Part shown: piece after piece, positions 5,456 to 33,830 of the stretch
How positions within the stretch are numbered: the stretch's first letter is position 1
How the letters are laid out: every line of letters begins with the position of its first letter
NCBI GenBank assembly: GCA_000004695.1
Contig: CM000154.2
Span: 4,000,001 to 4,064,000 of the forward strand
Origin: Dictyostelium discoideum
Lineage: Eukaryota
Length of the DNA: 64,000 bases
Direction of reading: 5' to 3'
The notes under the pieces: generated by a model
What the model saw: the letters and a program-made list of their open reading frames with translations, nothing else
Databases searched by the model: none
What the model was told of the DNA's origin: nothing
Translations under genes and position numbers: made by a program

Positions 5456-5477
5456 TTATTAAAAACTTTCACATCAT

Positions 5478-5549
5478 TCCTTGTTGGTCTAGTGGTGAGG
5501 ATTTTCGCCTGTCACGCGAAAGGCCCGGGTTCAATTCCCGGACAGGGAG
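5478..5549 (+). tRNA. tRNA-Asp (anticodon GUC), 72 nt, no intron.
   Basis: TCCTTGTTGGTCTAGTGGTGAGGATTTTCGCCTGTCACGCGAAAGGCCCGGGTTCAATTCCCGGACAGGGAG. The 7-bp acceptor stem pairs (one G-U). A box is TCTAGTGGTGAGG, B box is GGTTCAATTCC, anticodon loop is cCTGTCAc, discriminator is G. Confidence 0.92.
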
Positions 5550-5555
5550 TTTTTT
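5550..5555 (+). terminator. RNA polymerase III terminator (T6) immediately after the tRNA.
   Basis: TTTTTT directly follows the discriminator base. Confidence 0.6.
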
Positions 5556-5579
5556 AAGATTCCAAAAAATAAAATCGCA

Positions 5580-5589
5580 GGTTCGACTC
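5580..5589 (+). promoter_or_regulatory. External B box (ex-B box) GGTTCGACTC, 31 bp downstream of the tRNA 3' end.
   Basis: Matches the B-box consensus GGTTCGANTC outside the tRNA body. Dictyostelium tRNA genes are known to carry such an extra B box. Confidence 0.5.
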
Positions 5590-5797
5590 TTGTTTAAGAC
5601 TATATTGATAATAATAAATAAAGGAAAAAAAAACCGTACCGCGATCAAGAGGATACAAGATACACGTGAAAAGTAATTCATCCTTTTCTATCTTTAATCT
5701 CGGTCAATTTTAACCAATCTTTCAAAAAAAATCACCAATCCACCACGATCTACAGATCTAACTTACCAAATCGCCGATTCAAAGGAATCCCATCGAG

Positions 5798-6568
5798 ATG
5801 AATTCCTACGCAGACGCGGCTAAAATGGCCAACCCCTCCACCCATATGGACGAGGCATCGGAGAACTTCATTAAGGAATTCTCCACAAAAACAGCAGAGA
5901 TAAAGGAGACCTACCCCAAACTATCAATAGGCCTCAAAGACATCTCCAAATACTGCGAGACCATATTGAACATGACTGCGCTCTCAACCTATGAGAAGAA
6001 CAACGGATTCTACCCAATTACTCGAATTCCCCAAAATGGATCTCAAGGGGTTAGAAGAAATGNNNNNNNNNNNNNNNNNNNNNNNNNNNNNNNNNNNNNN
6101 NNNNNNNNNNNNNNNNNNNNNNNNNNNNNNNNNNNNNNNNNNNNNNNNNNNNNNNNNNNNNNTTTACAAATGCATAAATCTGCAAATAATTCAATATACA
6201 TAATAAGTTGGATGGATCAAATCATCAACAAATCAATCTCTTCTCCATACCTTATAAAAATCAAAAAAGAATGGGAAAATTATGCAACTCAAATTGGACA
6301 TCTAAAAGATAAAGTTCAAATCCTACAACCAATATTAATAAAAAATCAAACCTCTCAAACATTAAACACAAATAATATTCCACTACCACCAACACTCAAA
6401 GAAATCTACTCGACAATACTCAACAATCACCAATGTAAATCAAAAGACTATATTGGCAAGAAATATTCAGATCTACTTCTTACTTCGCACCAACAATCAA
6501 TACAACTATTACGGAAATACACATACCACCAACTATTTGTCAAAATTCAAAAATTAAAAGATCCATAA
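5798..6568 (+). CDS. Retroelement ORF1-like protein, 256 aa, interrupted by the assembly gap.
   Basis: ORF track. The composition is unlike host genes. Confidence 0.4.
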   Translation: MNSYADAAKMANPSTHMDEASENFIKEFSTKTAEIKETYPKLSIGLKDISKYCETILNMTALSTYEKNNGFYPITRIPQNGSQGVRRNXXXXXXXXXXXXXXXXXXXXXXXXXXXXXXXXXXLQMHKSANNSIYIISWMDQIINKSISSPYLIKIKKEWENYATQIGHLKDKVQILQPILIKNQTSQTLNTNNIPLPPTLKEIYSTILNNHQCKSKDYIGKKYSDLLLTSHQQSIQLLRKYTYHQLFVKIQKLKDP

Positions 6569-8115: not shown

Positions 8116-11078
8116 TTAAAGGAAGAATAATTTATCAGATAATTGAGGCGCAGCATCAGCGAAAACTGTTCTACCAATTAAAAATGCCATTTTGTGTGCA
8201 AATTGACAAGTTGCTGGAACACGAACTATAAATTTTAAATTTTAAAGTATTAATATATATATATCAAAATAAAGATTATTTATATTATTTAAATTTAATA
8301 TTAAAATATTAATAATTACCAGATTTTTCAAAGTTGAAATAAAGATGACACATTTGGAAAGTAAATAATTGAAATAAATCAGCAGGCATTTTTTGTTCAT
8401 CCAATAAAACGTGATAATGAGTTGGATTGACAGAACCATTGTTAGTTACTTGAGAGACTAAAAAGAAATCATACCAATTTGGATGGGTAATTTTTGAGTC
8501 AACCAAAGTACCAGCTGGAGGATTACCAATTGGATCAGCAGTAAATAAACGTGCATTTGTATTCTTTTTGACAATGACATACATTAACTTTGGTTTTATA
8601 CCCCAAGAAGATGGTGTTTCAGCAAAACCTTTTTTCATTGCAGCAATTTCAGATCTATTGACAAGATCTAACATACCATCACCAACACCATCACGATAAA
8701 CTATAACCAATTCTGGTAAACAATTATTGAAACTAAAATATTTTGACATTGCTTCTTTAGTTGCTTCTTCAAGAGAATCAATGATTTCTTTACCAGGACG
8801 CTTTTGAACAAAAGATCTTGAGAAATACTTTTGAAATTTATCATCGATAGTTGCAACGAATCCAACTACTGAATGACCTCTCATATCAGAGTTATGACCA
8901 ACATCGATACCAATGATCATTGTTTTCTTTGGAATGACACCATTGAATATTTGTTGATTGAGACCCCATGGTGCATAACCTAACTTTGCAATTACTTGTT
9001 GTTTTAATTTATTGGTTACTGATCTACCTTTATAAAAAGTCCTTGGGAAAATACATTGAGTTAAAACTTTAAATTGAACCAATGATTTTCTCTTTATCTC
9101 TTTATAGATTTCTGGTTGATTTTGTGGAATTAACATTAAAAAGAATTGAATACCATGTGTTTTAATTGCATTCTCCATGATATTAGAGTATTGAATTGGT
9201 CTTTTATCGCGTGGGTCTGTATAACAAATTGTTGTTGGTTGTGACATTCCAGTTTCATTTATGAAATTATAAAGATTGGTTTGGCAATCTCTTGTTCTCT
9301 CATATTCATCACGATCAACAACAAATGCCCATTTAATATTATTCAATTGACGTTTATTATCATTTGGTAAATTCTTTGGTGCACTTAAAACATAACCATC
9401 AACTTTTAAAGCTGGTTGATATGTAATTCCCCATGGTTCTAATGATTTTGAAACTTTTGGATTATTATTAATATCTGAAATAAAATTACTCAATGTTTGA
9501 TATCTTTGACTTGGATCAAAATTTGAATGTTTTGCTAATTCAGCCATAAGTTTAAAATTTTTACGCATCTAAATAATAGTATTTATATTAATATGTTTAA
9601 ATTAATTAATAAGAATAAAAAATAAAAAGAACAAACTTACATGATCACTTAATCCAGTTAAAAATGTTAATTCTGGAATTAAAAAGATAGTTTGTTTAAT
9701 ACCTCTGAATTTAACTTCAGATTTTAATAATGGTTGACGATAATCTGTAATTTTATGATTTGGATAATTTCTTTGATAATATTGTAAAAATGTTGTTGTA
9801 CCATCCATTTTATCATTAACTCCACTTGACCAAGAAATATTAGAGATACGATAGGTTTTATTATTATAACGAGTTAATACAATTGAATTTATAATTTCAT
9901 CAAAACATCTATCTTTGTCATATCTAAGGTATTTAATTCTATCTAATACAGTTTCAGATCTAACAACTTTTGAACTTGTATCTGCTAATAACATTGTACC
10001 AGATTCTGTTGAAACTACAGATGTACTAAAACCTTTCCAAACTTCAAGTAAATAATCTTCAAATTTAATTTTATTTATTGGTGAATAGTAATTTCTACCA
10101 ATAAGTGAAAATCCCATTTTTCTCATATTCTATATTTATAATAAAAAAAAAAAAAAATAAAAAATTATTAATTATTAAATTTAAAAGAAATAAAAAATAA
10201 AAAAACAAAAAAAATAAACTTACATTTTTTGTAATAATATTAAAAAATTGAGAATTAACAGATGATTTATCCCTATGGTTAACTTCTTTTACTTTTCTAA
10301 TAAATATTTGAACACCATCAATTGATTGTGAATTAATATTGATATTAATCGGAGAATATAAAATTGAATCACCATCATAGAAATAAAATTCTTTTGATAT
10401 GTTATTTAATGAAAGTAATTCTCTAATTAATTTACGTCTCTTGTCAAAAGTAACTTGTGGTGGATTAAAATCAATACGAAATTCTAGTGATTTCCTATCT
10501 GAAATAACAATTGGAAAGAAATTTGAAATTAAAGAAATTTGTTTACCTTGAACAGTTCTTGATTTTGCTGTAACAATTGCAACATTTTCAATGTCAGAAT
10601 CTTTAACCATATCTCTTCTTGAAATTCTTGGAACTAATAGATTTGTATTTGTTGTATTTGTTGTTGTAGTTGTTGTAGTTGTTGTTGTTGTTGTTGTTTC
10701 AGGTGTTTGAGGTTGTGTGATTGGTTTTACTTCTTGAAATTGTTCTTCAAGTGGGATACTGTTATTTTGTTTTCCCCAAGCATTTTGAGTTTGTCTTGGT
10801 TGGAAATATTGTTGTGGTTGTTGTGGTTGTTGTAGTTGTTGTTTTTGTTGTTGTGGTTGTTGTGGTTGTTGTGGTTGTTGTGGTTGTTGTTTTTGTTGTT
10901 GTTTTTGTTGTTGTTTTTTTTGTTGTGGTTGTTGTGGTTGTTGTTTTTGTTGTTGTTGCGGTGGTTGTTGTTGATAATTATTATTATTGGTTCTTTGTTT
11001 CAATGGTGATTGACTTCTATCAATTTCTTGATGAGATTTTGGTTCACCATTGAATCCTTTTTGTTTTTTTGGGATCAT
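8116..11078 (-). CDS. Argonaute/Piwi-family protein of about 900 aa: Q/T-rich N-terminus, PAZ, MID and PIWI domains. Four exons: 11078..10224, 10129..9641, 9568..8320, 8225..8116.
   Basis: PIWI motifs GIDVGH, VIVYRDGVGDG and PTHYHVLLDE..LFQLFTFQMCHLY align to human AGO2 (PSHYHVLWDD..LQILTYQLCHTY). The last exon encodes RVPATCQFAHKMAFLIGRT.., which corresponds to SIPAPAYYAHLVAFRAR. Introns of 94, 72 and 94 nt have GTAAGT/GTAATT...AG borders and preserve the frame. Confidence 0.8.
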
Positions 11079-23700: not shown

Positions 23701-26700
23701 AACTAAAGCCATCAATATTTGCACGTGAAAAGAAAGCTTGAAGTAAACATTTCACTTTGGAATGACTATCCAAAACTGTCAATTCATAATAACATTGGTT
23801 CTCGGCTAATTTATCCAATTCAGTTGATTCCTCTTCACGTAAGGTAATATTTTCAAACTCGGATGAATTTGATAAAATATTTAAAACTTGATCTTGACCC
23901 AATTGATCATTCAACATTTCATTGAAAGTTTCAATCGATGGATGTTTAATATAATAATGTGAGGCGATTCTACCCAATTCTGTCATACCTAAATTTTCAG
24001 ATTGTTCATCGAAACGAGTCATTTTACATTGTTCCAATTTCTTTGCTGCTCTAATGATAATTTCACGTTTAAACTCTTCAAGTTGTGGATCTTTTGAACG
24101 TTGAGAACTTGGTATACCATACACCAATGGATTTTGAAGCATTCTAATGAATAAATAGGTATAACTTAACCAATTGACAGCTTCATTAACATTTGATACT
24201 GTTCCTAAAACAATCTCTGCATTTAAATGATCCTCAAGATTTGTAATGAATTTACTTTCAATTGGCATAGAACTTGACATTAATGAAAGATAATGATCCA
24301 ATTTATCCTTTGAAGTTAAAAGGAAACCTTCACCACTTGTATCGAATTGTGGACGACCAGCACGACCAAAGATTTGCATAACATCTGAAATTCCAAGATC
24401 CATAAAACCACCATTCTTTGCATTGTAAACTTGAGTACCTTTAATGATTACAGTATGAGCAGGTAAATTTACACCCCAAGCCAAGGTTGCTGTACAAACT
24501 AAAACCTTAATGGTACCATTGGCAAAGTATTTCTCAACCACATTTCTATCAGATCTTAGGAGACCAGCGTGATGTACGGAAATACCATGTTGAAATAATG
24601 ATCTAATCTCTTTACTCTTTACTTTTTCAAATTCTTTCTTTGCACCAAATGATGGTTCCTCATTAGAGAAACGGAAATGCTTTTCTTTTGCCATATCACT
24701 TAAAATCTCTGCACTCTTTACAGTATCCTTTCTAGAATGAACAAAGATCATAACTTGATGACCTTCCTTTAATGATTTCTCCAATCTTTCATAACATAAT
24801 TGATTCATATTATTTTTCATAACCATTATACCTTGATTATCTTTAACACCAATGAAATTTTGAGTTAAAGGTACTGGACGATAAGATGAATCGAAAAAGT
24901 GAGTACCTGAAGCTGGTGCTCTAATAAATCTTGCAACATCTTTATAGTTTGGTAATGTTGCTGACAAACCAACGATACGAATCATCTCTTGAGTGGTTTC
25001 AACTTGACGAAGTGTTCTTGCTACAATACACTCCAATACTGGACCTCTCTCTTCATGAAGTAAATGAATTTCATCGATAATGATTAATCTAACCAATTTT
25101 GTCAATGCAACATCACTACTTTTTCTTGTGATAACATCCCATTTCTCTGGTGTTGTAACGATGATTTGAGTCTCTTTAAGTTCCTTTTGAGTCAATTGCA
25201 TATCACCAGTTAACTCTTTTGATACGATACCTAAATATTTCAATGAATTTGAAAATTTCTCAACCATTTCACTTGCTAAAGCTTTCAATGGTGCAATATA
25301 AATGATCTTGAAATTATCTTTATCCAAATAACCATATGGATTGATATTGCTTTCAATCTCGTGTAAAATTGTCAATAAAGCAATATTGGTTTTACCAGCA
25401 CCAGTTGGAGCTGAAATTAAAATATTTTCATTACTCTTGTATGCAGATTCAAATACACGACTTTGAATACGATTTAATTTCTTTATACTACCAAATGCTG
25501 CTCTACTAATCTCTGCAATTGATTCTCCAATCTCTATTAATTTTTCATTATCTGCAAATGGTTTAGCCAATGAATATGGTACCATAACTTCAGTATGTGT
25601 GGTTTTCTCTGTTCTAACTGTACCCTTTGGCAATGCAATCTTACCACCGTATGGTAAATCTATACAAACATCACCACCTGTAAACTCTTTTTGATTATAA
25701 ATAGTTGGTTGTTCAAATGATTGTTGACTATGATCAATAAATTTAATTTGTTCTTCTTGATATTGTTGTTGCTGTTGTTGTTGTTGATCATTTTTATATC
25801 TCTTTTTATCATCTTTTTTTAATTGCTTATCAAAATCTTTTTCATCTTTTGTTTGAATTGAAAAATGATTTAAAGGACCAGAATGATTCGATGCTCTATA
25901 ACCAGATACAACAGAACCCAAAATACTATCACGATACTTTATGATATCTGCAATTAATTCTAAATGATCGAAACCTAATAATCCAATCATATCCTCTTCA
26001 ATTGTTTCTTTTTTATTTTTTAAAAATGACATTATTGTATTATAAATCTCTTCTGATGGTATACCTAAACCAATTGAAATTACACTACATTCCTCTCTTA
26101 ACCATTCAATTGTATAAGTGCTATCAACTACATTATTTGATTCTAAATTATTTGAACCACCAGCTGCTGCTAATTTCTTTAATTTTTTTGATTTTTTAAT
26201 TTGACCAGGTTGATGAATTAAAACCATATCACTTAGAGGTGTATTTATAAGTTTTTCTTTTTCCTTTTCTTTTTGTTCATCAAGATTATTATTAATTTTT
26301 GTATTGATGAAATGATTGATTTCATCGAAAATTGACATTTCATCATTATCTTCAAATTGTAATTGATATTTCGATGGTAATTGCCATTCCATTGATTCGA
26401 AAGAATCAATGGTTTGTACTGATTCATTGGATGCTTTTGAATCTGATTCAAATGGATTCTTAATTTGTAATAAAAGGCCAACTTGTTCACTTAATTTATT
26501 ATACATTGCTACTTTGAAAAATGAATGAAAAATTTGACGTAATGATTCACATTTTGATGCTTTATCTTTATGTGGATTTGCAACAATCATAAATGTTTCA
26601 TAAACTGCTGATGCAATCTCATCTGATGGTATTTCATCATCACCAATCATCTCTAAAACAATCTCTTTAAATTTATTAAAAATTTGTCTATTCTCTTTTT

Positions 26701-27033
26701 CTTTTTCTTTATTTTGTTCTTTTTTTTTTTTAATATAAATATTAAAAGTATTAAAAATTAAAAATTATAAAAAGTTAAAATTTAGTTTATTATTTTTATG
26801 TTTTTATTTATTTAAAAAAAAAACTTACTACTGTCACTAAAATAACTCCAAGTTAATTGACCTTTTTCAATAATTCTATCTTTTTCTTTTTTCTTTTCAT
26901 TTCTTTTTTTCATAATTTCTTTATTACGAGCAACTACTTGTTCATCAAAAGTTTGAGTATTACCATTTGTTAAAGATCTAAGTGTATTACTTATAGTGGG
27001 TTCAAATTTATTCTGATTATCAAATATACCCAT
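20336..27033 (-). CDS. ascc3: ASCC3-type (activating signal cointegrator complex subunit 3) tandem Ski2-like RNA/DNA helicase with two Sec63 units, about 2190 aa. Two exons: 27033..approx 26828 and approx 26708..20336.
   Basis: Cassette 1 (APTGAGKTNIALLTILHEI..KELTGDMQL..TPEKWDVITRKS) matches human ASCC3 rather than BRR2. Cassette 2 carries SPTGSGKTICAELAMFKVF. Exon 1 (MGIFDNQNKFEPTISNTLRSLTNGNTQTFDEQVV..GQLTW) aligns to the human ASCC3 N-terminus (LTGALRSFSNVTKQ..LGLTW) and joins by a GTAAGT..AG intron, phase 1. The track ORF alone (26650) would miss about 90 residues. Confidence 0.85.
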
Positions 27034-27142
27034 TCTTTAATGTTTTTTTTTGTTTTTATTTGTTTTTATTTGTATCTTTTATTTCTATCTCTATTCTTTT
27101 TAAAATATATGATTAAAAGTGAGTAATGTAAAAAAAAAAATG

Positions 27143-27173
<31 letters not shown>

Positions 27174-27179
27174 GGTTTG

Positions 27180-27214
<35 letters not shown>

Positions 27215-27523
27215 AAAAAGTAAAAAATGAAGAAAATGAGATAAATACCAGAAAATGTCCAAAATGGATAAAGTTAAAAAATGAAATAATTTTGTTTAAG
27301 GAAATGAGTTTGGAATGATTATATAATATATATACATCCAAATAATTTATTTATTTAATAATTTTTATTATATTGTTATAGATGAATAAACCTAAACTTC
27401 TTCTTAATTATCTTTTTTTTTAAAAAGTTATAAAAATTTCTTAAAAACCTAAAACTAAATTTAACTTTTTTTTGTTTTTTTTTTTTTTTTTTTTTTTTGT
27501 TTTTTCGACCGTTGAATAATGTT

Positions 27524-28450
27524 TTATTTATGTAATGGAGTTGTAATTTTCTTATCTTTATTTGCTTCATTTATATCTTCATGATAATTTGTAAATTCAT
27601 GATCACCCATCATGCCTTTAATAACTTTATCAGCATTATCTTCATCTCTTAATACTGATTTTTGACCGGCACCAGTGATGCCACCTTTTTTATTACGATT
27701 TTGATATTGAATATTTAAAATCTGTTCCTCTGTTAACTCTAAATCTTTACAACCATACACTTCAACATATTCAATTTTATATTCCGCTTGTGAGGATAAC
27801 ATAGTGTTACCATAGGTGCTTGCTCTTGGTTTACCATCACCATTACTTAATATTTCATCAGATCCTTTACTTTCACCATTTTCCATTAGGTGATCTATAG
27901 AGAATGCATATAAAAGTTCACCACCCATTGCAAAACCGTTGAATAATGTTTTAGAATCTGCATTGAAATATTGAAAACATTGATCTAGGCCTGTGGATCG
28001 GAATATCTCAATCTCAGGCTTCAATGTGAAAACGAAATTATTTTTATTTCCATAGAATTTTGGATACTTAATTTTTAAATTTTCGTCACAAAATCCACCA
28101 AAGATATGACCTTCCTCACCCTCCTCCTTTACAATGACAATAATCGAGCCTTTCTCTGTTGAATGATGTTGAAATCTATTGAATGAATGACCATCCCTTG
28201 ATGATGAAAATAATAATTTCCATGTTTCCCTATATGAATCATCTGGTAAATATCTTGATATCCATCTAATATGTTCATCATTTAATAATTTAGATTTCTC
28301 TGTTAATTCTGGTACTTTAACATAAAATTGATTTTTATTATTATTATTATTTATTTCATTTTTTTCTTGTTGTTCAATATTTGTTTGATTATTATTATTA
28401 TTATTATGATGATGATGATGATGATGATGTTTTGATGAAGATGATCCCAT
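27524..28450 (-). CDS. TLDc-domain protein (MEAK7/OXR1-like) with N-terminal MGSSSSK (N-myristoylation consensus) and a His8 tract.
   Basis: TLDc core LLFSSSRDGHSFNRFQ..HIFGGFCDE..FVFTL..NGFAMGG..YAFSID. Single exon. Confidence 0.75.
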   Translation of the reverse strand: MGSSSSKHHHHHHHHNNNNNNQTNIEQQEKNEINNNNNKNQFYVKVPELTEKSKLLNDEHIRWISRYLPDDSYRETWKLLFSSSRDGHSFNRFQHHSTEKGSIIVIVKEEGEEGHIFGGFCDENLKIKYPKFYGNKNNFVFTLKPEIEIFRSTGLDQCFQYFNADSKTLFNGFAMGGELLYAFSIDHLMENGESKGSDEILSNGDGKPRASTYGNTMLSSQAEYKIEYVEVYGCKDLELTEEQILNIQYQNRNKKGGITGAGQKSVLRDEDNADKVIKGMMGDHEFTNYHEDINEANKDKKITTPLHK

Positions 28451-28813
28451 TTTATTTATTTATTTATATTTTATATATGTATGTGTATATGTAAGTATTA
28501 AGTTTAGTTTTTCTTTTTCTTTTTTTTATGAAAAACAAAATGAGTTTTTTTTTTTTTTTTTTTATTTTTTATTTTTTTTAATATTAAAACATATTTTTTT
28601 TTTTACCAGGGTTATTTTTATTTTTATTTTTATTTTTTTTTTTTTTTTTGTTTTTTTTTGTTTTTTGTTTTTATTTTCTCATTAATATAAGAGATTTAAA
28701 AAATAAATGAAAAATCAATAATAATTTATAGTTATACATGTAAAAAAGTGTTTAGATTTTTATTTTTTTTTTTTTTTTTTTTTTTTGGCCAATTTTTTTT
28801 TTTTTTTTTTTTT

Positions 28814-29317
28814 TTACCAATTTAATAATTCATAACCCATCCAAAACATACTTGTACCAGCAACAATGAATGGTGAAATTGCATCTTTTATTCTACTTGT
28901 TTTATAAATGAAACATTCAGTTACGAAATGTCCACCAGCAATTAAGAATGAAACAAAAGTGCAAGCATATAATGCTTTATTGAATGGATTAAATGCTGTA
29001 GCAACACAAAGTGTAAAACTCATCATTGTCCAACTACCAAATAATCTACAAAATAATGGATTAACTTTTTTTTTAAAAAAAATAAATAAATAAAAATAAA
29101 TTAATAATTTTAGAAAATTAGAAATATTTTTTTTTTTTTTTTTTTTTTTTTTTATTATTTTTTTTTTTATTTGATAATAATAATAATAAGACATACTTGA
29201 TTTTTGATCACCAGAATAAACATTTGATTTAATTCTTGATTGATTAAAGAATGCTTGTGAAGCACCTAACAATCTTAAACTTGCAACAACTAAAAGCCAA
29301 ATTGAAATCTTTTGCAT
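28814..29317 (-). CDS. Small multi-pass membrane protein of about 125 aa. Two exons: 29317..29197 and 29064..28814.
   Basis: GTATGT..AAAAAG intron, phase 1. Hydrophobic segments. Family not recognised. Confidence 0.5.
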   Translation of the reverse strand: MQKISIWLLVVASLRLLGASQAFFNQSRIKSNVYSGDQKSSMSYYYYYQIKKKIIKKKKKKKKNISNFLKLLIYFYLFIFFKKKVNPLFCRLFGSWTMMSFTLCVATAFNPFNKALYACTFVSFLIAGGHFVTECFIYKTSRIKDAISPFIVAGTSMFWMGYELLNW

Positions 29318-29344
29318 TCTTATCCTTTTTGTGAAGCGAAAAAC

Positions 29345-29380
<36 letters not shown>

Positions 29381-29573
29381 AAAAAAAAAAAAAAAAAAAA
29401 GTGATTGGTTGTGAGTGAAAAAAAAAAAAAAAAAAAAAAAATTGAGAGAATTAAATTCCAAGTGATAAATATTTTTTTTTTAAACATTTTTATTTATTTA
29501 TTTATTTTTTTTAAAATTTTTTTTTTTTTTATTATCTTTGTAAATTATTATTTAATTTACTTGTTTATTTTTT

Positions 29574-30716
29574 TTAATTTTCTGCTTGTTGTTTATTTTC
29601 TTCTTGATTTTCTTCAGTTTGTTCAGTTTCTTCTTGAATTTCAACTTTTGGATATTGTTGAGAGGCTAATCTATATTTAAGTGGACGTTTAAGGATAGAA
29701 TTATAATCTCTTTTAACTTTTTCAGGTCTAACTTTATTGATGATGATAGATTTTTCAGAGGTGGATGGAGTACGTAAACTACCATCGATACCTTGAATTA
29801 AAACCATTGGATCAGGGTTAACTTTTTTAGTGAATGGATCTCTAGAGGTATCAACGAAAACTAAATTCTTTTTTCTTGGCATGAGATAGGTTGGACCTCT
29901 GAAATAGATTGGTTGGTCATCGAATGCCTCTGGTATTTTAGTTGGAACTTGGTGAATTGGGTCTGGTTTGCCACGAACGTTCTTTTTATTTTTAACATCT
30001 CTTTGATGGAGATAGTTTTGGTTGATTGAACGAGCATTGGAACCAACACCCTTTTGGAGTGAAAAGTTTTGGTAATCGTTCACCTTTTGGTTGTCATCCT
30101 CACCCAAATCGTCGTCATGGAAACGGCAGCCCCACTGTTCGGCCAAGGCGAGATCGAGTTCCTTGTGCACTGGGAACCCCCTTTCAATCTCTTGTTTTTC
30201 AATCTCTACGAAACGAAGTAACGCAACTACACGACCTGGATGAAGGGTGAAAACTTGTGACAAACGTTTGACGTCCCAAAACGATGGATCGTCATGGTGA
30301 AGTCTGTATAACTCATATTTGATCTCTGGATATAATGGTGGTCTGACATCCATTATCTCATCCTCCAATTCATTTAAATCATCATTAAGTTCTCTATCAA
30401 ACTCTTCCTCTGGTGTCTCTTCTACATAATTTTCATCATCTTCATCTTCATCATATTCTTCATCATCATCTTCATCATATTCTTCATCATCATCTTCATC
30501 CTCTGTGTTTCTTTCTTCAGATGAAGCTTCATTTAATAATTGTTTAGTTGAGCTAAAACTTCTATTTTGTTGAAGTTGTTGTTGATTATATTGTATGATT
30601 TTACTTTTATTATTGCTATTCTTATTAATTAATGTAATTGATGAATTGAAAATTATATTTCCATTGTTTAATGTTCTTTTAACTAAACACATATATTTAT
30701 GACTGTTTCTAATCAT
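29574..30716 (-). CDS. Hypothetical 380-aa protein with a presequence-like N-terminus (probably mitochondrial), an acidic D/E/Y tract and a conserved domain encoded by an anomalously GC-rich segment.
   Basis: ORF track. N-terminus MIRNSHKYMCLVKRTLNNG. Conserved block DPSFWDVKRLSQVFTLHPGRVVALLRFVEIEKQEIERGFPVHKELDLALAEQWGCRFHDDD. Confidence 0.55.
   Translation of the reverse strand: MIRNSHKYMCLVKRTLNNGNIIFNSSITLINKNSNNKSKIIQYNQQQLQQNRSFSSTKQLLNEASSEERNTEDEDDDEEYDEDDDEEYDEDEDDENYVEETPEEEFDRELNDDLNELEDEIMDVRPPLYPEIKYELYRLHHDDPSFWDVKRLSQVFTLHPGRVVALLRFVEIEKQEIERGFPVHKELDLALAEQWGCRFHDDDLGEDDNQKVNDYQNFSLQKGVGSNARSINQNYLHQRDVKNKKNVRGKPDPIHQVPTKIPEAFDDQPIYFRGPTYLMPRKKNLVFVDTSRDPFTKKVNPDPMVLIQGIDGSLRTPSTSEKSIIINKVRPEKVKRDYNSILKRPLKYRLASQQYPKVEIQEETEQTEENQEENKQQAEN
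30020..30330. other. Roughly 300-bp segment of about 50-55% G+C with G/C-ending codons (GGG, GTG, CTC, GCC, CAG, GGC, GAG) embedded in an otherwise 20-25% G+C gene.
   Basis: Direct reading of the minus strand: GGGTTCCCAGTGCACAAGGAACTCGATCTCGCCTTGGCCGAACAGTGGGGCTGCCGTTTCCATGACGACGAT. This codon usage is very atypical for the genome. Confidence 0.7.
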
Positions 30717-31075
30717 CTTTTTTTTTTTTTTTTTCCTAAAAAATATATATATTATATAAATATATTTATATATATATAATTTATTTTGATAAAAAATGAA
30801 AATATATTAAAAAAAAAAGATAAATTTTACAATGAAAATATATTCAATGTTGTCGTTTTTTATAAAAAAAAAAAAAAAAATAAAAATAAAAAATAAAAAA
30901 AAAAAAAAATAAAAATTCATTTTTTTTTTCTTTTTTAAAAAAAAAAAAAAATAAAAAAAAATAATTTCAAAATTATGTTTGTTTATAAAATTATAATTTT
31001 TTTTTTTTTTGATCATTTTTTCAGTGAGAAATATTTAATTAAAGTATTAAAGATAAAAATAAATAAAAATTAAAC

Positions 31076-31107
<32 letters not shown>

Positions 31108-31676
31108 TAATTTTAATTGAAGTAATAATAGAATTTGGAAAAAAAAAAAAAAAAAAAAACCATTTTTAAAATTTTAATTATTAATAATGGGACCGGGGAA
31201 AAAAAAAATTTTTAATTAAAAAAAAAATTAAAAAAAAGGGCAAAACCCCCTTTTTGATATTTTTTTAATTCCTAATTTTTTTACTTTTTATTCCTTTTCC
31301 TTGTATTAATATGTTTTTTTTATAAAAAACCATCTTTTTTTTTTATTTATTACTTCTTCCTGTGCAATAAATAATTAATTTCTTTTTTTATGTATGTATG
31401 TATGTATATGTATGTATGTGTGGGTGTAAACAATTGATATTTTACACATTAAATATAAATCTCCAAAAATTATTACTGTTATATCAATTCTTAAAAAGAG
31501 AGGAAAATAAAAAAATTTCTTTATAAAGTATACTTGATAATAAATTTGATTTCTTGGGGGAATTAAAATTTTTTGATATTTTTTATTTTTTTTTTTTTAT
31601 TTTCGTTTTTAAATTAAAATTAATTTTTTTTTTATTTTATTTTGAGTCACACACAAAAAACACTTTCAATAATTTT

Positions 31677-31766
<90 letters not shown>

Positions 31767-31913
31767 TAATAATTAAATAATTTTTAATTTATCTTCTTTT
31801 TCTTTTTTTCTCTCTCTCTTTTTTTTTTATTTATTTAATTTTATTTCTTTTTAAATATTTTTATATATTTTTTTTTTTTTAAAAAAAAAAATAAAATAAA
31901 AAATAAAATAAAA

Positions 31914-33830
31914 ATGGAAAATTTTAATTATCCAAAATTAAATTTAATTAAACCAGTACCATCCGATATTGAAATTGCATCATCAGTTGAACCATTACCA
32001 ATTAAAACCATTGCAAAGAGTATTGGATTATTAGAAGAAGAGATTGATTTCTATGGTAAATATAAAGCTAAAGTTAGTTTAGAAGTTATTGAACGTTTAA
32101 AGGAAACCGAGAATGGTAATTATGTGGTTGTTACTGGTATAAATCCAACACCATTGGGTGAAGGTAAATCAACAACAACCATTGGTCTTTGCCAAGCATT
32201 GGGTGCACATTTAGGTAAGAAAACATTTGCATGCATTAGACAGCCAAGCCAAGGACCAACCTTTGGCATTAAAGGTGGTGCAGCAGGTGGCGGATACTCA
32301 CAAGTGATTCCAATGGAGGAGTTCAATCTTCATATGACAGGCGACATTCATGCCATTACAGCAGCAAATAATTTATTAGCAGCTGCAATTGATACACGTA
32401 TTCTTCATGAGGGTACTCAAACAGATGCACAATTATGGAAACGTTTATGTCCAGTCGATTCAAAGGATGGTAGTCGTAAATTTGCACCAATCATGTTACG
32501 TCGTTTAAAGAAATTAGGTATTGACAAAACTGACCCAAATCAATTGACAGAAGAGGAGATTAGTAAATTCGTTCGTCTTGATATCGACCCAACTCGTATC
32601 ACTTGGAATCGTGTATTGGATACCAATGATCGTTTCCTTCGTGGTATTTCAGTGGGTCAAGGTAAGGAGGAGCAACGTTTTGAGAGAAAAACAAATTTCG
32701 ATATTTCTGTAGCCAGTGAGATTATGGCAGTTTTGGCATTATGTACAAGTTTATCCGATATGAGAGAACGTTTAGGTCGTATGGTGGTTGGTCCAAGTAG
32801 ATCTGGTGAACCAATCACTGCTGATGATTTGGGTGTTGGTGGTGCTTTGACCGTATTGATGAAGGATGCTATCATGCCAACCTTAATGCAAACACTCGAA
32901 GGTACTCCAGTACTTGTTCATGCTGGTCCATTTGCAAATATTGCTCATGGTAATTCATCGATTATTGCCGACCAAATCGCTTTGAAATTGGCTGGTAAAG
33001 ATGGTTACGTTGTCACTGAAGCTGGTTTTGGTGCTGATATTGGTGCTGAGAAATTCTTTGATATCAAATGTAGATCCTCAGGTCTTAAACCAAATTGTGC
33101 CGTAATTGTCGCAACCATCAGAGCCTTGAAAATGCATGGTGGCGGTCCAAAGGTCGTCGCCGGCACTCCATTAGATAAAGCATACACCAGCGAGAATATC
33201 GAGCTCCTAAAGAAAGGTGTCAGTAATCTTGCCCATCATATTAAAAACTTAAAGAAATTTGGTGTTGGTGTAGTGGTCGCCATCAATAAATTCCATACCG
33301 ATTCCGATGCCGAAGTTAACCTTTTGGTTGAGGCTTCTTTAACAGCTGGTGCTAACGATGCCGTTATGTCTGATCATTGGGCTGAGGGTGGTAATGGTGC
33401 TTTGGATTTAGCAAATGCCGTTGAAAAGGCTTGTAAAGAAACTAATAAAGATAACTTCAAATACCTTTATCCATTGGATAAATCAATTAAAGAAAAGATT
33501 GAAACCATTGCAAAAGAAATCTATGGTGCTGATGGTGTTGAATATTCACCAGAGGCCGATGATAAAATCAAATTATACACTACTCAAGGTTTTGATAAAC
33601 TTCCAATTTGTATGGCAAAAACTCATTTATCCCTAAGCCACGACCCTGAAAGAAAAGGTGTACCAACTGGTTTCATCTTACCAATTCGTGATGTTCGTGC
33701 AAGTATTGGTGCTGGTTTCATTTATCCATTAGTTGGCTCAATGGCAACTATTCCAGGTTTACCAACTCGTCCATGTTTCTATGAAATTGATATTGATACT
33801 AATACTGGTAAAATCATTGGTTTAAGTTAA
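31914..33830 (+). CDS. Formate--tetrahydrofolate ligase (monofunctional FTHFS), 638 aa, intronless.
   Basis: Signature [17 protein letters not shown]. The N-terminus [36 protein letters not shown] aligns to the synthetase domain of C1-THF synthase. Elevated GC and C/T-ending codons. Confidence 0.9.

Follow-up and report, generated by a model that had tools for sequence, protein, structure and literature searches.

The window, by which we mean the whole 64,000-nucleotide stretch of Dictyostelium discoideum DNA analyzed here, contains a minus-strand gene, DDB_G0290395, with an island of raised G+C inside its coding sequence (CDS). The gene had been called at 29574-30716 by an earlier sequence-only reading, and this call stands. 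The following features of the gene are needed for the analysis.

29574..30716, minus strand: intronless CDS of DDB_G0290395, an open reading frame (ORF) of 380 codons with a 100% match to the D. discoideum AX4 protein.
30020..30330, minus strand: the island as first delimited, with 46% G+C (0.460); the CDS on its two sides has 33% and 27%.
30072..30206, minus strand: the core of high GC3 (G or C at third codon positions), codons 171-215, EIEKQEIERGFPVHKELDLALAEQWGCRFHDDDLGEDDNQKVNDY; GC3 is 0.61 and G+C 0.50, and the core covers the end of the mS45-homology region plus a poorly conserved linker.
30081..30284, minus strand: codons 145-212, which include all seven expression-avoided G/C-ending codons of the gene (TCG145, GCG165, AGG179, GGG180, GTG183, CAG194 and GTG212), avoided and preferred classes being taken from Table S3 of PMC8321536 (expression-associated preference values).
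30228..30230, minus strand: codon V163 (HPGR|VVALLRF), the homologous site of a phase-1 intron by exon mapping and alignment, 24 nt upstream of the GC3 core.

Judged by homology, the product of DDB_G0290395 is an mS45/Bot1p-like protein of the mitochondrial small ribosomal subunit. The Pfam Bot1p model (PF12298) matches residues 126-186 of the AX4 protein at 19.3 bits (E=0.0014), below its gathering cutoff of 23 bits, and the Heterostelium and Acytostelium orthologues have precomputed PF12298 matches on record. A profile built from ten dictyostelid orthologues matches solved mS45 chains (9evs_e, labeled ‘mS45’, E=6e-6; 6xyw_BD, E=7.9e-6) over positions ~93-197 of the profile. The neighboring genes FTHFS, Erg28 and TLD remain syntenic around the dictyostelid orthologues. 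Erg28 lies ~750-900 bp downstream of the island on the same strand, and the intergenic spacer between the two genes is 256 bp. A literature search for DDB_G0290395, and for mS45 together with Dictyostelium, found nothing. The protein searches returned this single AX4 protein only and hence no paralogous donor.

The island is genuine, but it is smaller and less extreme than the sequence-only reading stated. The figure given there, roughly 50-55% G+C, fits the core, in that the best 135-bp window of the gene (30047-30181) reaches 0.526 and one 60-nt window reaches 0.58. It does not fit the segment encoding the peptide that was quoted, D143-D203 (30108-30290), which has 0.492, nor the whole of 30020-30330. 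The same-gene flanks, put at 20-25% G+C, measure 0.33 (29574-30019) and 0.27 (30331-30716), whereas the codons that were named (GGG, GTG, CTC, GCC, CAG, GGC, TGC and GAG) are all present. Among 311-bp stretches of the 64 kb, the one with the highest G+C, 29996-30306 (0.463), overlaps the island, and the top 135-bp stretch also lies in it; near rivals in bulk G+C are parts of the FTHFS gene (0.45-0.50) and the ORF at 5740-6050 (0.46-0.50).

What is exceptional about the island is its GC3, not its bulk GC. The same amino acids elsewhere in the gene predict a GC3 of 0.20 for codons 171-215, where 0.61 is observed, and none of 20,000 synonymous shuffles matched the observed 27/40 G/C-ending codons. 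Over 40 codons, the GC3 of the other ORFs in the window averages 0.156 (sd 0.09), and the sole other ORF with a comparably high value is the one at 5798-6568, at 0.68; the GC3-rich ORF at 5798-6061 has no match in Pfam or in protein searches. Third-position G and C are both raised in the island, by 4-5 fold (G3 0.25-0.30, C3 0.37-0.45).

Known codon preference cannot yield a core GC3 of 0.61. Using the codon-usage table of PMC8321536, the predicted value is 0.12 under genome-wide usage and 0.17 under the usage of the 1000 most expressed genes (P = 4e-15 and 3e-12, respectively), which places the observed value ~5 times above the genome expectation. A composition-only model with a GC of 0.59 describes the core codons best (logL -42.7), followed by high-expression usage (-63.6) and genome usage (-68.7). 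For the rest of the gene, high-expression usage is the best fit (-241.8 vs -285.4). Expression-preferred codons make up 22/27 of the G/C-ending codons in the island, where random choice among G/C-ending synonyms would give 20.7, compared to 61/63 in the rest of the gene (Fisher p=0.02), and tRNA adaptation, as a tAI-like value, is lower in the island (0.66 vs 0.75). By preferred-codon share, tRNA adaptation and GC3 (0.61 vs 0.17) alike, the island fails to qualify as a patch of optimal codons.

These results bear out the earlier statement that expression bias does not explain the island, with the composition-only model ahead by ~21 log units and tRNA adaptation lower. The codon reasoning behind that statement, which held that highly expressed genes do not shift towards G-ending codons, was imprecise: AAG, GAG and TTG end in G yet are expression-associated, and 22/27 of the G/C-ending codons in the island belong to the expression-associated class. 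Compared to the expression-linked codon bias of D. discoideum (Sharp and Devine, 1989; PMC8321536), the island is similarly rich in TTC, CAC, AAG, CTC, GCC, GAC, AAC, TAC and CGT, and high-expression usage is the best description of the whole gene. However, the magnitude is ~3.6 times beyond top-1000-gene usage and is limited to 45 codons, the island holds the avoided codons AGG, GGG, GTG (twice) and CAG, and tRNA adaptation falls rather than rises. A codon shift that follows composition only, brings in avoided codons and raises both G3 and C3 is one that is independent of codon optimality.

The encoded peptide is colinear in alignment across all ten dictyostelid orthologues, which allows GC3 to be compared at the same columns. 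It is 0.65-0.69 in AX4, 0.75-0.81 in P0002, 0.56-0.60 in D. citrinum and 0.40-0.45 in D. dimigraforme. Beyond this complex, GC3 at the island columns drops from 0.44 to 0.10 in D. purpureum and is ~0.15 in T. lacteum; these two species and P. violaceum are without an island. The island therefore weakens with distance from D. discoideum and is then absent. GC3 profiles of the FTHFS gene also correlate between close species (r=0.82 and 0.54), and an island common to close species is accordingly predicted by common descent alone. Between AX4 and its closest relative, no other ungapped coding window in 7 kb diverges as much as the island (8.7% vs 1-5%), and both synonymous and amino-acid differences exceed those of the flanks.

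Parsimony on the D. discoideum branch, with D. citrinum and D. dimigraforme as outgroups, assigns 13 AT-to-GC changes and 1 GC-to-AT change to the island, and 40 and 23 to the remainder, although the polarization is weak because of ascertainment and the outgroups available. Per AT site, the AT-to-GC changes amount to 0.21 in the island vs 0.07 elsewhere (p=9e-4) under this same weak polarization. The ascertainment bias in these counts arises because the island was picked for its high GC in AX4. Furthermore, pairwise synonymous distances suggest that D. citrinum and D. dimigraforme may be sisters and not successive outgroups, which weakens the polarization. For these two reasons, the parsimony counts are not taken as a clear AT-to-GC drive. 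With D. purpureum as the outgroup, which is strongly AT-rich and so biases the polarization, the D. discoideum lineage has 5 AT-to-GC changes and 1 GC-to-AT change and the citrinum/dimigraforme lineage has none. Terminal branches that can be polarized properly carry too few changes.

The core lies next to an intron position that is discordant among dictyostelids. Heterostelium album (110 nt), Acytostelium subglobosum (92 nt) and Cavenderia fasciculata (94 nt) have a phase-1 intron after ...H(R/P)xR, which is missing in D. discoideum and all group 3/4 orthologues, including those of P. violaceum, T. lacteum and D. purpureum. In AX4, codon 163 is uninterrupted, and the alignment is gap-free at the site. 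Groups 1-2 have the intron and groups 3-4 do not, a pattern that straddles the dictyostelid root. The intron may have been lost in the ancestry of D. discoideum or gained elsewhere; a profile search for non-dictyostelid homologues that could polarize it returned one extra gene model only, which is context-less and fused.

In the 100 bp flanking the intron site, G+C is 0.49 (3') and 0.44 (5'), compared to 0.30 in the remainder of the CDS and a median of 28.35% for D. discoideum CDSs (PMC4683709). Ma et al. (2015, BMC Evol Biol 15:286; PMC4683709) found that D. discoideum exons are significantly richer in GC within 100 bp of lost or discordant intron positions, and ascribed these GC-rich flanks to biased gene conversion. 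Our locus resembles their pattern in three respects. The intron of other dictyostelids is precisely absent at codon 163 with no indel, the 100-bp flanks have 44-49% G+C against a CDS median of ~28%, and the composition-only codon shift agrees with the cause they propose, biased gene conversion at sites prone to it. On the other hand, their losses are specific to D. discoideum or D. purpureum, whereas no group 3 or group 4 species has this intron, be it by loss or by gain elsewhere. In addition, the GC3 peak lies 25-130 nt to the 3' side of the site instead of around it, and other intron-less species have no island. At a single locus, the association of intron and island may be a coincidence: the chance that a 200-300-bp segment of a 1.1-kb CDS includes the single shared intron site is roughly 0.2-0.3. 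In the intron-bearing species, GC3 dips at the island columns.

With modest confidence, we tentatively favor a local GC-biased fixation process as the origin of the island, which would make it a by-product of DNA repair or recombination. What lies at 30020-30330 could well be a lineage-specific compositional patch in a weakly constrained segment of the CDS of an mS45-like protein, and nothing we found points to a second code. Expression-preferred codons ending in C would already have been moderately overrepresented here in the common ancestor of the D. discoideum complex. Later, within the D. discoideum lineage, a process favoring G or C whatever the codon would have raised GC3 of the segment to ~0.65-0.8. 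A plausible process is GC-biased gene conversion (gBGC), or another recombination- or repair-associated bias towards AT-to-GC fixation, spanning a few hundred bases. The place of the patch next to a discordant and putatively lost intron would fit the published pattern of GC-rich exon flanks. Gene conversion had been proposed in the sequence-only reading as an insertion of the conserved domain; it survives as the best remaining candidate in the form of a diffuse fixation bias, but not as an insertion.

Hotspots of gBGC and accelerated regions are reported from mammals, birds and yeast (Duret and Galtier, 2009). The island is like such hotspots in being a short tract with GC raised at silent and some replacement sites, with faster substitution, an apparent bias from AT to GC and no regard to codon optimality. 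It is unlike them in that the tract is only ~135-300 bp, no non-coding flank shares the shift, and it is known here from sequence alone. Moreover, D. discoideum is reported to be without genome-scale gBGC: De Oliveira et al. (2021; PMC8321536) saw no genome-wide sign of it at the 5-kb scale, which counts against our favored reading.

Taken alone, the island is of small import, as it reveals no new gene, element or transfer event and its host gene apparently encodes an ordinary mitoribosomal protein. It is useful rather as a clear-cut case, at one locus, that touches a disagreement in the Dictyostelium literature. On one side, biased gene conversion was inferred from GC-rich exon flanks at lost introns (PMC4683709); on the other, no gBGC was found at the 5-kb scale, and a codon-selection framework was built on its absence (PMC8321536). 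If such patches are common and driven by AT-to-GC fixation, fine-scale gBGC would need to be considered when inferring codon selection in D. discoideum. It is unlikely, in our estimate, that the patch is a sharply localized (~135-300 bp) and still active hotspot of GC-biased conversion or repair, or that GC content is itself maintained for a role at the chromatin or transcript level. Should an active hotspot be the case, this would be a locus at which to demonstrate sub-kilobase gBGC in Dictyostelium, whose mutational equilibrium is ~12% GC and which is reportedly gBGC-free.

Local selection on translation or mRNA is similarly doubtful as the source of the island. It could act through optimal codons that are fast, accurate or stabilizing or, conversely, through rare codons (AGG-GGG, GTG, CAG) clustered so as to make the ribosome pause once the mS45 domain has been translated. 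The 22/27 G/C-ending codons that are enriched in highly expressed genes are consistent with the former, as are the milder islands of D. citrinum and D. dimigraforme, which consist almost entirely of expression-preferred codons (18:1 and 14:0) and in which high-expression usage fits about equal to or better than composition. Codon preference in D. discoideum also generally peaks in mid-gene and drops at both ends (PMC8321536), and GC3 does likewise here. However, the usage of the top 1000 expressed genes predicts a GC3 of just 0.17 in AX4, tRNA adaptation changes in the wrong direction, the composition-only model leads by a wide margin, and synonymous sites in the island evolve faster, not slower. 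If accuracy at important residues were selected, the far more conserved C-terminal domain should show it, but its GC3 is only 0.15-0.40. Ribosome pausing would be in keeping with the clustering of rare codons at codons 145-212, yet AGG179 is AAG in the closest relative, so that the rare-codon pair is not conserved.

We consider it quite improbable that a functional DNA or RNA element overlies the codons, whether a nucleosome-sized GC patch, an enhancer or antisense promoter (for example for Erg28), an mRNA localization signal or a structured RNA. Speculatively, the ~135-bp core is roughly the size of a nucleosome, the peptide segment is weakly constrained and AT-biased mutation should have cut its GC, and the spacer to Erg28 is short. 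The sequence-only reading had raised a structured RNA as one form of a second layer of selection; neither this nor a conserved element is supported. Fold z-scores of +1.53 (sense) and +0.78 (antisense) indicate no unusual stability on either strand, and RNAalifold on four species gave 0/38 compensatory pairs. An Rfam scan of 29000-31500 (E<=10) returned only weak chance matches far below the gathering score, namely a CRISPR repeat at 16.8 bits and, on the GAT/GAA acidic repeat, models of archaeal C/D snoRNAs. ARAGORN placed no tRNA at the island, the only one in the window being at 5477-5550, and no DUSE-like ncRNA promoter motif lies near it. A G-quadruplex was rejected by eye: there are just three G-runs, and the loops between them are long. 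Nucleotide divergence in the island exceeds that of its flanks, whereas an element with a defined sequence should diverge less, which makes a conserved nucleic-acid element unlikely; there may instead be a need for high GC as such, irrespective of sequence. An antisense open frame of 74 codons at the island is uninformative, because one is expected wherever stop-poor, GC-rich sequence occurs, and D. purpureum, which has no island, has one of 64 codons.

Very doubtful, too, is a single past event now decaying as a fossil, in which one tract would have been converted in the common ancestor of the D. discoideum complex, with cDNA as donor during intron loss, or a GC-richer allele or species. The neighboring discordant intron position would suit this, and the fall in strength from D. 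discoideum to D. citrinum to D. dimigraforme could be decay, its polarity being ambiguous. However, any intron loss must long predate the island, since the intron is absent from all group 3/4 species. AX4 offers only the one protein and thus no paralogous donor, the island peptide is no nearer to a GC-rich lineage than to others, and, when polarized with D. purpureum, the changes map as gains to the D. discoideum lineage.

That the segment is an assembly chimera, a contaminant or a recent horizontal acquisition, to which the compositional contrast alone had pointed, has next to no probability: the orthologues are colinear and syntenic with the GC3 peak at the same columns in the closest relatives, and the contaminant comparison suggested by the sequence-only reading, run with blastn against plasmids and E. 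coli genomes, gave zero matches. As a caution, a local GC3 spike in a very AT-rich genome calls for a check of orthologues before it is taken for horizontal transfer or misassembly. In an independent D. discoideum assembly (GCA_054883475.1), the CDS is identical, with 0 mismatches in 1143 positions, and it is the intergenic homopolymers that differ.

The GC-rich island inside the host gene is real and, although small in scale, statistically extreme in composition. At both 135 bp and 311 bp it is the highest-G+C stretch of the 64-kb window, with segments of the formate-tetrahydrofolate ligase (FTHFS) gene (0.45-0.50) and the open reading frame at 5740-6050 as near-rivals. The sequence-only reading had set 50-55% G+C in the island against 20-25% around it; the island holds up, but the contrast was overstated.

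Host gene, island and their G+C content
29574-30716, minus strand: host open reading frame DDB_G0290395, 380 codons, intronless
30020-30330: island as first delimited, G+C 0.46
30108-30290: segment encoding the peptide first quoted for it, G+C 0.49
30047-30181: top 135-bp window, G+C 0.53
29574-30019: 3' side of the host coding sequence, G+C 0.33
30331-30716: 5' side of the host coding sequence, G+C 0.27
Whole 64-kb window: mean G+C 0.23

What sets the island apart is base choice at third codon positions. In the stretch that we call the core, codons 171-215 (30072-30206), GC3 (the G/C share at third codon positions) is 0.61, compared with 0.20 predicted from how the rest of the gene encodes those amino acids, and 0 of 20000 synonymous shuffles reached the observed 27 G/C-ending codons out of 40. 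From the codon usage published for the genome in Table S3 of PMC8321536, the GC3 expected for the core is 0.12 with genome-wide usage (tail probability 4e-15) and 0.17 with that of the top 1000 genes by expression (3e-12). D. discoideum has a genome-wide GC3 of 14% and a mutational equilibrium near 12%. In the conserved FTHFS gene (31914-33830, plus strand) GC3 rises less strongly at several places, to 0.45-0.55 over 20 codons, near codons 131-150, 311-330, 401-430 and 451-470.

Comparing GC3 per species at matching columns of a codon alignment places the peak of the relatives at the same columns, where it fades with distance.

GC3 at the island columns
AX4, the D. discoideum reference: 0.65-0.69
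P0002, orthologue from assembly GCA_054859355.1 and closest relative of AX4: 0.75-0.81
D. citrinum: 0.56-0.60
D. dimigraforme: 0.40-0.45
D. purpureum: 0.44 dropping to 0.10
T. lacteum: about 0.15

Between AX4 and P0002 the island is the most divergent ungapped coding window in 7 kb (8.7% vs 1-5%), and amino acids differ at 8 of 42 positions there as opposed to 2 of 192 elsewhere. Synonymous differences from D. citrinum and D. dimigraforme are 0.33-0.39 in the island and 0.18-0.21 elsewhere. As a control, the FTHFS GC3 profile is largely common to P0002 (r=0.82) and D. citrinum (r=0.54), and D. discoideum is in general slightly GC3-richer than D. citrinum (0.245 vs 0.207). Because local GC3 profiles are inherited in this way among close species, their sharing of the island is no evidence of selection. 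The P0002 assembly itself, although labelled Dictyostelium discoideum, differs from AX4 across 26574-33716 by 2-5% in coding DNA and by up to about 20% in alignable intergenic DNA, and its orthologous protein is 84% identical. Since this divergence is far above within-species expectation, the assembly may represent a cryptic or mislabelled species.

Expression bias had been discounted for the G-ending codons on the premise that highly expressed genes do not favor them. That premise is imprecise, as AAG, GAG and TTG are expression-associated, but the conclusion is borne out by a codon-model test. In the island a composition-only model (best GC 0.59, logL -42.7) fits better than high-expression usage (-63.6) and genome usage (-68.7); over the other 329 codons the order changes, with high-expression usage first (-241.8) and the composition model last (-285.4). 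The expression-associated class does supply 22 of the island's 27 G/C-ending codons, in agreement with the 20.7 predicted by a random draw among G/C-ending synonyms; outside the island 61 of 63 are preferred. The gene has seven G/C-ending codons of the expression-avoided kind, and every one falls within codons 145-212 (TCG145, GCG165, AGG179, GGG180, GTG183, CAG194, GTG212). The milder island of D. citrinum and D. dimigraforme is built almost wholly from preferred codons (18:1 and 14:0). We nevertheless regard local selection on translation or mRNA as unlikely, given the model comparison and a tRNA adaptation of 0.66 in the island vs 0.75 in the rest of the gene. Adaptation reaches 0.79 in the C-terminal domain, which is far more conserved than the island yet has a GC3 of just 0.15-0.40, so accuracy selection at important residues does not fit.

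The structured RNA suggested for the island is not borne out. Its folding is no better than that of shuffles (sense z = +1.53, antisense z = +0.78), RNAalifold on four close species gives 0 of 38 compensatory pairs, an Rfam scan of the locus returns chance-level matches only, and no tRNA gene was found at the island. A sequence-specific second code predicts conservation, and the island, as the most divergent coding window, is evidence of the opposite. A DNA or RNA function that depends on GC content we judge improbable. We give still less credence to one past conversion event that has since been decaying, as no paralogue able to serve as donor was found. Assembly chimera and recent horizontal insertion, both raised by the sequence-only reading, are ruled out together with contamination, and artefact or transfer of the segment is left with a negligible chance: GCA_054883475.1, a D. 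discoideum assembly whose differing intergenic homopolymer lengths show it to be independent of the reference, has 0 mismatches in 1143 coding positions; orthologues are colinear through the region (P0002, D. citrinum, D. dimigraforme, D. purpureum, P. violaceum, T. lacteum, H. album, A. subglobosum, C. fasciculata), with the GC3 peak of relatives at matching columns; and blastn of the island against plasmids and E. coli genomes gave zero matches.

The core lies next to a discordant intron site, that is, one occupied in some orthologues and empty in others.

Discordant intron site
30228-30230, minus strand: codon V163, homologous position by orthologue exon mapping and alignment

A phase-1 intron is present in H. 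album (110 nt), A. subglobosum (92 nt) and C. fasciculata (94 nt), in the codon following ...H(R/P)xR; the group 3/4 orthologues all lack it, with zero indels at the site. The homologous AX4 codon, V163, is 24 nt upstream of the core. Ma et al. 2015 (PMC4683709) reported that in D. discoideum exon sequence within 100 bp of a lost or discordant intron position, on either side, is significantly GC-richer, and explained this by biased gene conversion at conversion-prone sites. The AX4 site resembles those exon flanks in that G+C is raised on both sides (0.49 and 0.44 in the 100-bp flanks vs a 28% CDS median). The link may be coincidence: a 200-300-bp segment has a chance of about 0.2-0.3 of holding the gene's one shared intron site. 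Loss and gain are not polarised, because presence and absence straddle the dictyostelid root, and intron absence alone is insufficient, since D. purpureum, P. violaceum and T. lacteum have neither intron nor island. In the three species that keep the intron, GC3 is 0.20-0.35 for about 20 codons on each side vs gene means of 0.41-0.60, a dip that mirrors the peak found in D. discoideum immediately downstream of this position.

When D. citrinum and D. dimigraforme serve as outgroups, parsimony assigns the D. discoideum branch 13 AT-to-GC changes and 1 GC-to-AT change in the island, and 40 and 23 elsewhere. Per AT site, AT-to-GC changes amount to 0.21 vs 0.07 (p=9e-4) for an island preselected for AX4 GC. 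Pairwise synonymous distances (0.16, 0.18, 0.21) suggest that the two outgroups may be sisters rather than successive. Polarised by D. purpureum, the island shows 5:1 and the remainder 13:2, and strictly polarised terminal branches hold only a handful of changes. The AT-to-GC excess is suggestive only, because of the way the island was picked, the doubtful outgroups, the AT-richness of D. purpureum almost everywhere and the few polarised changes.

The evidence points to a local, function-blind force favoring G or C: the codon shift is of the compositional type and indifferent to codon optimality and the tRNA pool, silent and replacement evolution are faster in a weakly constrained linker, and the signal follows a gradient across lineages and lies beside a discordant intron site. 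The best candidate for this force, which we put forward tentatively, would be GC-biased gene conversion (gBGC) or a related recombination-associated repair bias. A correlation between chromosome size and GC was found in D. discoideum (Pessia et al., 2012); gBGC conflicts, though, with a report that it is undetectable in this species at the 5-kb scale (PMC8321536). The simplest history would begin with a modest ancestral patch of preferred codons, followed by a composition-driven push in the D. discoideum lineage. The island is best filed as another instance of the known local GC heterogeneity in Dictyostelium coding sequence, and its main value is as a test locus for fine-scale gBGC.

The host reading frame is 100% identical to AX4 DDB_G0290395, annotated as hypothetical only. 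A ten-orthologue dictyostelid profile picks up mS45 chains from solved mitoribosome structures (9evs_e, E=6e-6; 6xyw_BD, E=8e-6), and the protein has a Bot1p (PF12298) match below the Pfam threshold; the gene therefore most likely encodes the Dictyostelium mS45 small-subunit mitoribosomal protein. Gene order around it, with Erg28, a TLDc gene and FTHFS as neighbors, is the same in related species. An acidic low-complexity tract, TEDEDDDEEYDEDDDEEYDEDEDDENY, at 30400-30510 (minus strand) is a near-perfect direct repeat of GAT/GAA codons that differs in length between close species and draws spurious weak Rfam matches to archaeal C/D-box snoRNA models. Variation at the locus is greatest at 31134-31525, part of the intergenic region that separates the divergently oriented mS45-like gene and FTHFS; this stretch diverges by about 20% from P0002, and 31134-31251 has 20 mismatches in about 120 bp between two D. 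discoideum assemblies. Genuine polymorphism of a promoter segment may account for this, as may faulty alignment or assembly of AT-rich sequence.

The sole other stretch of the window equalling the island is an open reading frame from 5798, with GC3 0.55-0.80 over its first ~70 codons. In the region 5477-6568, a tRNA-Asp(GTC) gene at 5477-5550 (plus strand) is followed by a B-box-like GGTTCGACTCT at about 5580-5590 and a GC-richer segment from about 5640, and the reading frame runs directly into a 100-N assembly gap at 6063-6162. Zero matches came from Pfam or protein search; its place downstream of a tRNA gene suggests a tRNA-targeted, TRE3-like retroelement. Near this retroelement-like reading frame and the gap, an open reading frame at 8309-9568 (minus strand) has a strong Piwi domain (E=5e-68) and is presumably part of an Argonaute gene.
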